Of a DNA stretch of 32,000 nucleotides, positions 4,320 to 14,679 are shown in pieces. The DNA is taken from assembly GCA_046497275.1 (NCBI GenBank), contig JAWOFX010000130.1:1-32000 (forward strand), written 5' to 3'. The translations under genes were made by a program, and so were the position numbers. Position 1 is the stretch's first letter; every line of letters starts with the position of its first letter. The DNA is from Promethearchaeia archaeon (lineage in GTDB: Archaea > Asgardarchaeota > Lokiarchaeia > Sigyniarchaeales > SOKP01). A model generated the notes under the pieces. That model was not told the DNA's origin, ran no database searches, and worked only from the letters and a program-made list of their open reading frames with translations.

Positions 4320-4544
4320 AATTTTCGATAATTTCTTCTAGGTCGTAATTTTACTCTTTTTTATGGAATATCAACTGAGAAGGTATTCTATAAAAAAATT
4401 TTTATGTTTTATTATTTTAGTTAGATTAATAACACAGTTAAAACTGATTACCATACCCATAAAATAATTCATAATAACCGGTTATCTCAGAATTACAGCT
4501 CCATGATTGAGTAATTAAAACTGTGTAACCGAAGAGTTAGTTAA

Positions 4545-4725
4545 GCTCCCGTTGCTTAGCTTGGTTAACAAGCAATAGGTTCTTGTCTTGACCGACAAGC
4601 GCAGGTCTTATAAATGGCCGATGGACAAACAATCAAGAACAACTGTCCATAATAGTAAAAACCTGAGATCGGGGGTTCAAATATGATTCTCATTTCGAGA
4701 TTCATGGATTTTCCCCCCGGGAGCA
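4545..4725 (+). tRNA. Probable tRNA-Ile (anticodon UAU) with three introns: 4568-4596 (position 21/22), about 4613-4659 (37/38) and 4682-4711 (59/60)
   Basis: Acceptor GCTCCCG/CGGGAGC plus A73; D-stem GCTT/AAGC; anticodon stem CAGGT/ACCTG; short variable loop AGATC; T-stem GGGGG/CCCCC with TTCAAA|T loop. The D-loop intron has a clean hBHBh' (GCT/AGC, TGGT/ACCG, CAAG/CTTG). The T-loop intron has a relaxed BHB. The anticodon intron has a TGTCCAT/ATGGACA stem but an imperfect central helix. Confidence 0.8.
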
Positions 4726-4764
4726 AAATACTTCTCTTCAAATTTATTTTCCGAATAATTATGT

Positions 4765-5097
4765 ATGTTAACTAATATGTCCATCAATTTCTCAACAGAA
4801 GCAAAAGATTTTATTAAAAATAATAATATCAAATATCTTTTCTTAGATGTTGATACTATAGAAGAGGGATGTACAGCAATATATAATCCTAATCTAAAAA
4901 TTGTTTCCAATAAAATTAATTCAGAGCAAGTAATTGAAAACATTGAAACAGAAGATATTCAATTATTTATTTCAAAGGATTTTAATTCACTTTTTGGTAT
5001 ACAAAAGCAATTTGAAGTAGATCTTGTCGGGTTTTTCGAAAAAGTTTTAACAATCACTAATATTGAAGCGAAAACCAAAAACATATGTAAAGTATAA
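4765..5097 (+). CDS. Small HesB/IscA-like-fold protein (tentative); likely start ATG 4777
   Basis: N-terminus INFSTEAKDFIK followed by a hydrophobic strand and EEGC resembles HesB-like proteins; weak, by-eye similarity. Confidence 0.4.
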   Translation: MLTNMSINFSTEAKDFIKNNNIKYLFLDVDTIEEGCTAIYNPNLKIVSNKINSEQVIENIETEDIQLFISKDFNSLFGIQKQFEVDLVGFFEKVLTITNIEAKTKNICKV

Positions 5098-14576: not shown

Positions 14577-14679
14577 GCAGCGGTCGCTTAGCCTGGTAGA
14601 GCGCTGGCTTGGAGATAGGATAACCTACCATAAAGCCAGTGCGTTTTAACGTGCGGGGGTTCGAATCCCTCCCGCTGCG
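14577..14679 (+). tRNA. tRNA-Ser (anticodon GGA) with a canonical 19-nt intron (14615-14633)
   Basis: Acceptor GCAGCGG/CCGCTGC plus G73; anticodon stem CTGGC/GCCAG with GGA at 14611-14613; long variable arm; GGGGG TTCGAAT CCCTC T-arm; BHB with TAGG/CCTA; T-rich tract downstream. Confidence 0.95.

Follow-up and report, generated by a model that had tools for sequence, protein, structure and literature searches.

AUA is the one sense codon whose reading differs among the three domains of life, and several systems are known in which it is read by a tRNA-Ile with a UAU anticodon. Within the archaea, tRNA-Ile(UAU) without TiaS, the enzyme on which archaeal reading of AUA usually depends, has been reported for Nanoarchaeum and Korarchaeum, two of 167 genomes (PMC6000648), and the UAU tRNAs of Nanoarchaeum equitans and Candidatus Korarchaeum cryptofilum have been named tRNA-Ile3(UAU) (PMC8450103). 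In ARMAN the intron at position 37/38 of the UAU tRNA is cut by a broad-specificity endonuclease (PMC3239211). The anticodon of the eukaryotic tRNA-Ile(UAU) becomes pseudouridine-A-pseudouridine (PMC6000648, PMC8879553), and in bacteria that lack TilS, including Mycoplasma mobile, a UAU anticodon compensates for the lost C34-modifying enzyme (PMC3575796). Genes with several bulge-helix-bulge introns per tRNA are described in Asgard archaea (Valentin-Alvarado 2024) and in Thermoproteales (Sugahara 2008), both as cited in a preprint (bioRxiv 10.64898/2026.10.13.758758). A literature search returned no paper joining Asgard archaea with TiaS or with AUA decoding by a UAU tRNA.

Here we describe a locus in a Loki-type Asgard archaeon, giving all positions in the window, which is the whole stretch of 32,000 nucleotides that was analysed. 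We consider it highly probable that positions 4545–4725 of the plus strand are a functional tRNA-Ile(UAU) gene, split by three introns, whose product reads AUA. This would extend a rare archaeal exception to the relatives of eukaryotes, and would provide a system for asking how U34 avoids AUG and whether an intron plays a part.

Organization of the tRNA-Ile(UAU) gene

The features of the locus are as follows.

4512..4520, plus strand: AT-rich TATA-like box TAATTAAAA, about 25–33 nt upstream of tRNA position 1, as read from the sequence
4545..4567, plus strand: exon 1, tRNA positions 1–21, with the acceptor 5′ strand GCTCCCG, U8, U9, the D stem GCTT and the D loop to A21
4568..4596, plus strand: intron 1, of 29 nt, at about 21/22 in the D loop; the cut slides by 1 nt
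4597..4613, plus strand: exon 2, positions 22–38, with AAGC, G26, the anticodon stem CAGGT and the loop CUUAUAA
4609..4611, plus strand: anticodon TAT (UAU), positions 34–36, from the sequence and ARAGORN; invariant in 20 of 20 orthologs
4614..4660, plus strand: intron 2, 47 nt, adjoining the anticodon (37/38 or 38/39, with the same product)
4661..4681, plus strand: exon 3, positions 39–59, with ACCTG, the 5-nt variable loop AGATC, the T stem GGGGG and the T-loop portion TTCAAA
4682..4711, plus strand: intron 3, a hairpin mini-intron of 30 nt at T-loop position 59/60
4712..4725, plus strand: exon 4, positions 60–73, with T60, CCCCC, CGGGAGC and the discriminator A73
4565..4741, minus strand: antisense ORF of 58 amino acids over the tRNA gene
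4677–4943, minus strand: second antisense ORF, 88 amino acids

The pre-tRNA is 181 nt in length, and removal of the inserts of 29, 47 and 30 nt leaves a mature form of 75 nt in which the D-loop portion of exon 1 reads AGCTTGGTTA. The cut of intron 2 slides by 1–2 nt within runs of A, which leaves the product unaffected, and CCA is not encoded at the 3′ end of exon 4. When spliced in silico, the 75-nt product is called as tRNA-Ile (tat) by ARAGORN and folds into a regular cloverleaf, with a 7-bp acceptor stem, a D arm, a 5-bp anticodon stem, a 7-nt loop containing U33, and a T arm whose loop is of the UUCRAnU type. Its Ile-type features are A37, A38, A73, a short variable loop and the UAU anticodon. 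The three inserts had been proposed in a preliminary description made from the sequence, and their lengths and positions were right in every detail, both on reading the sequence and from the ARAGORN call on the spliced form; the cloverleaf given there, with its CU-UAU-AA loop, short variable loop and A73, is likewise borne out by that call and by stems that pair across the orthologs. The box at 4512..4520 is a possible archaeal promoter element, judging from its composition and placement; RNA contigs (see below) start upstream of it.

In its unspliced form the gene gives no tRNA match with ARAGORN or with Rfam (RF00005, at the gathering score and in permissive mode), because the three inserts interrupt the sequence. 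Both programs are thus blind to it, in keeping with the expectation that it would be easily missed, and standard tRNA finders overlook an essential gene entirely. Annotations of these genomes will therefore seem to lack any tRNA for AUA, and spurious antisense ORFs may be annotated in its stead. The overlap with an antisense ORF noted earlier is present, with two such frames (58 and 88 amino acids) on the minus strand, and we judge the 58-residue frame to be spurious because it overlaps a conserved and covarying tRNA gene.

Several other tRNA genes in the window and in the host genome contain inserts. A tRNA-Sec gene with anticodon TCA lies at positions 11–129 (18–133 by our parser; Rfam 49.4 bits) and has a T-loop insert of about 30–34 nt, with an identical copy on contig C165 of the same assembly. 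A tRNA-Ser(GGA) gene at 14577–14679 contains an anticodon-loop intron of about 19–22 nt (Rfam 46.8 bits; ARAGORN). A tRNA-Phe(GAA) gene (G000 C122:1367–1529, minus strand) is interrupted by three inserts, one of which falls within the anticodon stem at about 30/31; in-stem introns therefore occur in the host genome, and defeat simple finders.

Conservation and covariation among relatives

A BLAST search of 40 relatives located the gene in 19 of the 24 genomes belonging to the same family. The full cloverleaf could be parsed in 18 of 20 orthologs and the loop CTTATAA is present in all 20. Each position of the acceptor stem, anticodon stem and T stem is paired in all of the fully parsed orthologs (17/17), and eight stem positions in these 17 are altered on both sides: five acceptor pairs (2, 3, 5, 6 and 7), the first two pairs of the T stem, and the second pair of the anticodon stem. 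The maintained pairing and the compensatory changes are far beyond chance. The acceptor stem, for which the preliminary description had suggested a likeness to vertebrate tRNA-Ile(UAU), varies freely from one ortholog to another.

For wider comparisons we used a 15-nt signature, AGCGCNGGTCTTATA, that runs from the 3′ strand of the D stem over G26 and the anticodon stem to A37 in the loop. Within the family it occurs in 110 of 117 genomes, and within the sister family in 6 of 11, almost always as a single copy. The two matches outside the order (G258 and G301) lie inside coding sequence and were set aside as chance. A version of the signature with C34 (CAU) has no match among 121 genomes, which lends no support to an origin from an Ile2(CAU) gene sharing this body. 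Among the other tRNAs of the host genome the closest is tRNA-Ile(GAU), with 65% identity over the stems, followed by the CAU elongator with 63%; these values give no sign of a recent duplication, and do not discriminate between a GAU and a CAU source. Single-intron tRNA(UAU) genes were found in three sister-family genomes and in one closed genome from a third family of the order. BLAST searches with a single-intron ortholog against five closed or near-closed TiaS-positive genomes, and against five TiaS-less genomes of other families, gave short generic or AT-rich matches only, and are uninformative on those lineages.

Structure and distribution of the introns

The number of introns ranges from one to four among the 20 orthologs, and their pattern of presence and absence matches the predicted borders. 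The D-loop intron is missing from four of the 20 (L012, L014, L015 and L019), in which the D arm reads GGTTA|AAGC as predicted, and the T-loop intron is missing from ten, in which the sequence reads TTCAAAT, again as predicted. An intron in the variable region occurs in three orthologs, and an additional D-loop intron in three. The intron adjacent to the anticodon is the sole one never lost, being present in all 20 family orthologs and in the four genes from two other families.

In the archaeal bulge-helix-bulge motif a 4-bp helix is flanked by 3-nt bulges, one on each strand, and the cuts fall inside the bulges; all three inserts can be drawn as relaxed versions of this motif. Introns 1 and 3 are hairpin mini-introns of about 30 nt. 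Intron 1 has 4-nt bulges and a central helix UUGG/CCGA, which is kept in relatives as UCGA, UCAA or CCAA; intron 3 has a central helix UUCA/UGGA with 4-nt bulges, and forms a clean 3-4-3 motif in ortholog L010. The 3′ part of intron 2 (GUAA here, (G/A)UA(A/G) in orthologs) pairs with U33–U36, so that the cuts fall after position 37 or 38, either of which gives CUUAUAA. Its 5′ bulge is AAA (AAN in orthologs), and its inner helix has only 2 bp, with 2–3 bp of the form UGR/YCA in most orthologs.

Intron 2 also contains an internal 7-bp hairpin (4621–4627 with 4644–4650) that shows several compensatory changes in orthologs. Its loop starts with a conserved (A/C)(U/A)ACA in the family and with GCAUACAU or GCGUACAU in the sister family, in a comparison that took in L002–L020, L024 and L027; the hairpin (4621–4650) has no match to an Rfam family.

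Three further observations concern the intron borders. In 17–18 of 18 orthologs G29–C32 can pair with an intron GRCC (window 4604–4619), a fold incompatible with the anticodon stem, and the precursor may therefore alternate between two conformations. In L006–L009 the D-loop intron closes, on its 3′ side, with an imperfect repeat of the D-loop exon immediately upstream (AGCTTGGTYAAC ... AGCTTGGYCAAC), with a weaker likeness of the same kind at window positions 4585–4596; this resembles a direct repeat on either side of the insert, and may have a bearing on the origin of these introns. Finally, in ortholog L015 (G005:C13) some 20 additional bases separate the intron end CAGUAG from CCUG; these are unparsed and may be a further intron in the 3′ strand of the anticodon stem.

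AUA decoding in the host lineage

The host genome is 98.9% complete and has a G+C content of 30.4%. AUA ranks ninth in its codon usage, accounting for 33 of every 1000 codons and for 33% of those that specify Ile. Where AUA occurs in RtcB, the homologues have Ile in 28 of 48 aligned cells and Met in two, and the genetic code is therefore standard.

TiaS was sought with the TiaS_FLD and TiaS_TCKD domains, and with a complete TiaS protein of four domains encoded by a different Asgard genome; none of the three has a match in the host genome. TiaS_FLD is likewise unmatched in all 41 genomes sampled from the order (three of which consist of a single contig), in all 117 genomes of the family, and in the further phylum families f5, f6, f7, f9, f19, f24, f25 and f26. 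Across the phylum the same domain is matched in 156 of 332 genomes, which form family-specific blocks, and it is matched in all four archaeal controls. Because about half of the sampled genomes of the phylum keep TiaS, the loss appears to be clade-specific, which argues against an ancestral Asgard trait.

The tRNA genes were counted with an intron-tolerant finder anchored on the acceptor and T arm, together with Rfam, and about 44 were found in the host genome. Two have a CAU anticodon: that on contig C34 is the initiator, with an A1-U72 acceptor stem and a G-C-rich anticodon stem, and that on contig C180 is an elongator with a 34-nt intron. No third CAU tRNA, which would be tRNA-Ile2(CAU), was found among these genes, in a census that is incomplete and does not strictly exclude a hidden one. 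Genes for tRNA-Thr(UGU), Gly(CCC), Pro(CGG) and Arg(CCG) were also not found by this census; of these, Thr(UGU) at least is to be expected, so that either introns conceal it or it is missing from the assembly. Any hidden CAU gene could not, without TiaS, read AUA by the known route.

Because neither TiaS nor a third CAU tRNA was found, we take AUA to be read by the UAU tRNA and not via agmatidine, and tRNA-Ile(UAU) is the sole evident AUA reader of the lineage. The preliminary description had suggested decoding without agmatidine, and this agrees with the absence of TiaS from the searches of the genome, of 41 relatives in the order and of the 117 family genomes. As for a tRNA-Ile2(CAU), the genes recovered conform to the suggestion, with the initiator and one elongator the only CAU tRNAs among them, although a census that misses Thr(UGU) stops short of settling the matter. 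The order, together with several other TiaS-less Asgard families, appears to have dropped the agmatidine route, and the order studied here appears to rely on an intron-containing tRNA-Ile(UAU).

RNA-library evidence and alternative readings

Five metatranscriptome runs contain part of the stretch, and we compared contigs from three RNA runs and one DNA run with the locus. One RNA-library contig of 529 nt spans 4467–4950 with 2 mismatches over 484 nt and is without exactly 4682–4711, the 30-nt T-loop insert; this insert is retained in an independent DNA run at a depth of 33. Upstream of 4467 the contig diverges, with 13 unlike bases at its 5′ end. In run X5, one RNA contig ends at 4681, the predicted 5′ cut, and another starts at 4725, the 3′ end of the tRNA, and these are weak hints, from one study only, of processing sites. 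Removal of introns 1 and 2 was not seen, every RNA-library contig retaining both. No mature or fully spliced RNA was seen among the RNA-library contigs, which cannot show that a mature form is absent.

The 30-nt gap could reflect splicing, or the gene could be functional and the gap not due to splicing at all, being instead a genomic intron-less allele of a related strain. We think the allele somewhat unlikely, though a serious possibility. The divergence upstream of 4467 is what makes an allele of another strain possible, and the retention of introns 1 and 2 in the same contig points the same way, as does the finding that half of the orthologs have no T-loop intron in their DNA; RNA libraries, moreover, can contain DNA. 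Against this, the 484 nt contain only 2 mismatches, the intron is retained in the independent DNA run, and the other contig from the same study (run X5) stops exactly at the predicted cut. Whether through splicing or through an allele, the 30-nt T-loop element and its borders are independently confirmed.

Two other readings concern the gene itself. It might be a decaying or non-functional tRNA gene, with AUA read by a hidden tRNA-Ile2(CAU) whose modifying enzyme is unrelated to TiaS. This is very improbable: the imperfect splicing motifs of its three introns and the lack of a fully spliced RNA among the RNA-library contigs would suit decay, but 110 of 117 family genomes retain the gene as a single copy, its stems changing in a purely compensatory manner, and AUA is heavily used in the host genome and means Ile. 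A hidden tRNA-Ile2(CAU) could have escaped the incomplete census, but only two CAU tRNAs were found by it and a search of 121 genomes returned no C34 form of the signature. It is also possible on paper to splice the A-rich junctions differently, with the exon ending at CTTA or earlier and AAA supplied by the 3′ end of the insert, which would yield the loop CUUAAAA and a UAA (Leu) anticodon. We find this scarcely credible. Contig C151 carries a distinct tRNA-Leu(UAA) whose variable arm is long, which rules out such a reading of the gene described here, whose own variable loop has 5 nt as against the long variable arms of the host Leu tRNAs; the conserved pairing of U33–U36 with (G/A)UA(A/G) sets the cuts after 37 or 38, and relatives with a canonical 37/38 intron also yield UAU.

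Proposed maturation and a possible role for the anticodon-adjacent intron

The host genome has two genes encoding EndA domains (about 200 amino acids) and two RtcB genes. Non-canonical introns are cut only by the two-subunit and epsilon2 types of endonuclease (PMC5829648), and the two EndA-domain genes fit a broad-specificity two-subunit enzyme, the type that we infer here. In the scheme that we propose, the three introns would probably be cut out by the archaeal splicing endonuclease, RtcB would rejoin the exons, and CCA would be added afterwards; the mature 75-nt tRNA would then be charged by IleRS and read AUA. The splicing agent, the charging with isoleucine and a safeguard at U34 against the reading of AUG, by modification or by other means, are all predicted parts of this scheme. 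It is plausible that a U34 modification is needed to avoid AUG; in Mycoplasma mobile, U34 is reportedly unmodified, with IleRS and the ribosome adapted.

In eukaryotes, formation of pseudouridine-A-pseudouridine in the anticodon requires the intron. By analogy, the intron adjacent to the anticodon might always be kept because it is needed for modification of U34 and/or U36 before splicing, an idea that we regard as rather unlikely. If true, such intron-dependence would explain the covarying hairpin, the (A/C)(U/A)ACA loop motif and the pairing with the anticodon, and a eukaryote-like, intron-dependent way of reading AUA would already exist in Asgard archaea. The host genome has one gene of the TruA/Pus1 family and no extra Pus1-like paralogue. 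The anticodon had been called eukaryote-style, and this holds in so far as UAU is used for AUA; a special link to eukaryotes does not follow, the same solution being found in Nanoarchaeum, Korarchaeum, ARMAN and some bacteria. At this stage the resemblance to eukaryotes is one of analogy only.

Comparison with known systems

The resemblance to eukaryotic cytoplasmic tRNA-Ile(UAU) lies in the use of UAU for AUA and in an always-kept intron that adjoins the anticodon and pairs with it. The bacterial tRNA-Ile(UAU) gene of Mycoplasma mobile, unlike the gene described here, has no introns. As in the multi-intron tRNA genes of Asgard archaea and Thermoproteales, many of whose introns lie in the D arm, several introns interrupt the gene and standard annotators miss it (bioRxiv 10.64898/2026.10.13.758758); the preprint contains no mention of Ile, UAU or TiaS, and its focal families are in other classes.

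The likeness to ARMAN-2, -4 and -5 is in the UAU anticodon and an intron at 37/38 (37/38 or 38/39 here), and in the loss of both TiaS and tRNA-Ile(CAU), which for the CAU tRNA is an apparent loss in the present lineage (Fujishima et al. 2011, PMC3239211). In ARMAN there is a single 25-nt intron with a strict hBHBh′ motif and an epsilon2 enzyme (PMC3239211), whereas the present gene has two additional non-canonical introns and relaxed motifs, and the host genome carries two distinct genes with EndA domains. In Nanoarchaeum and Korarchaeum, as appears to be the case here, a genome-encoded UAU replaces tRNA-Ile2(CAU), and the Korarchaeum gene also has an intron (PMC8450103; PMC6000648). The present gene differs in belonging to the Asgard phylum, in having three introns (one to four in orthologs), and in occurring order-wide in more than 100 genomes. 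The UAU strategy is thus one already known in a few archaea, of which this lineage is a new and sound example, documented across an order.
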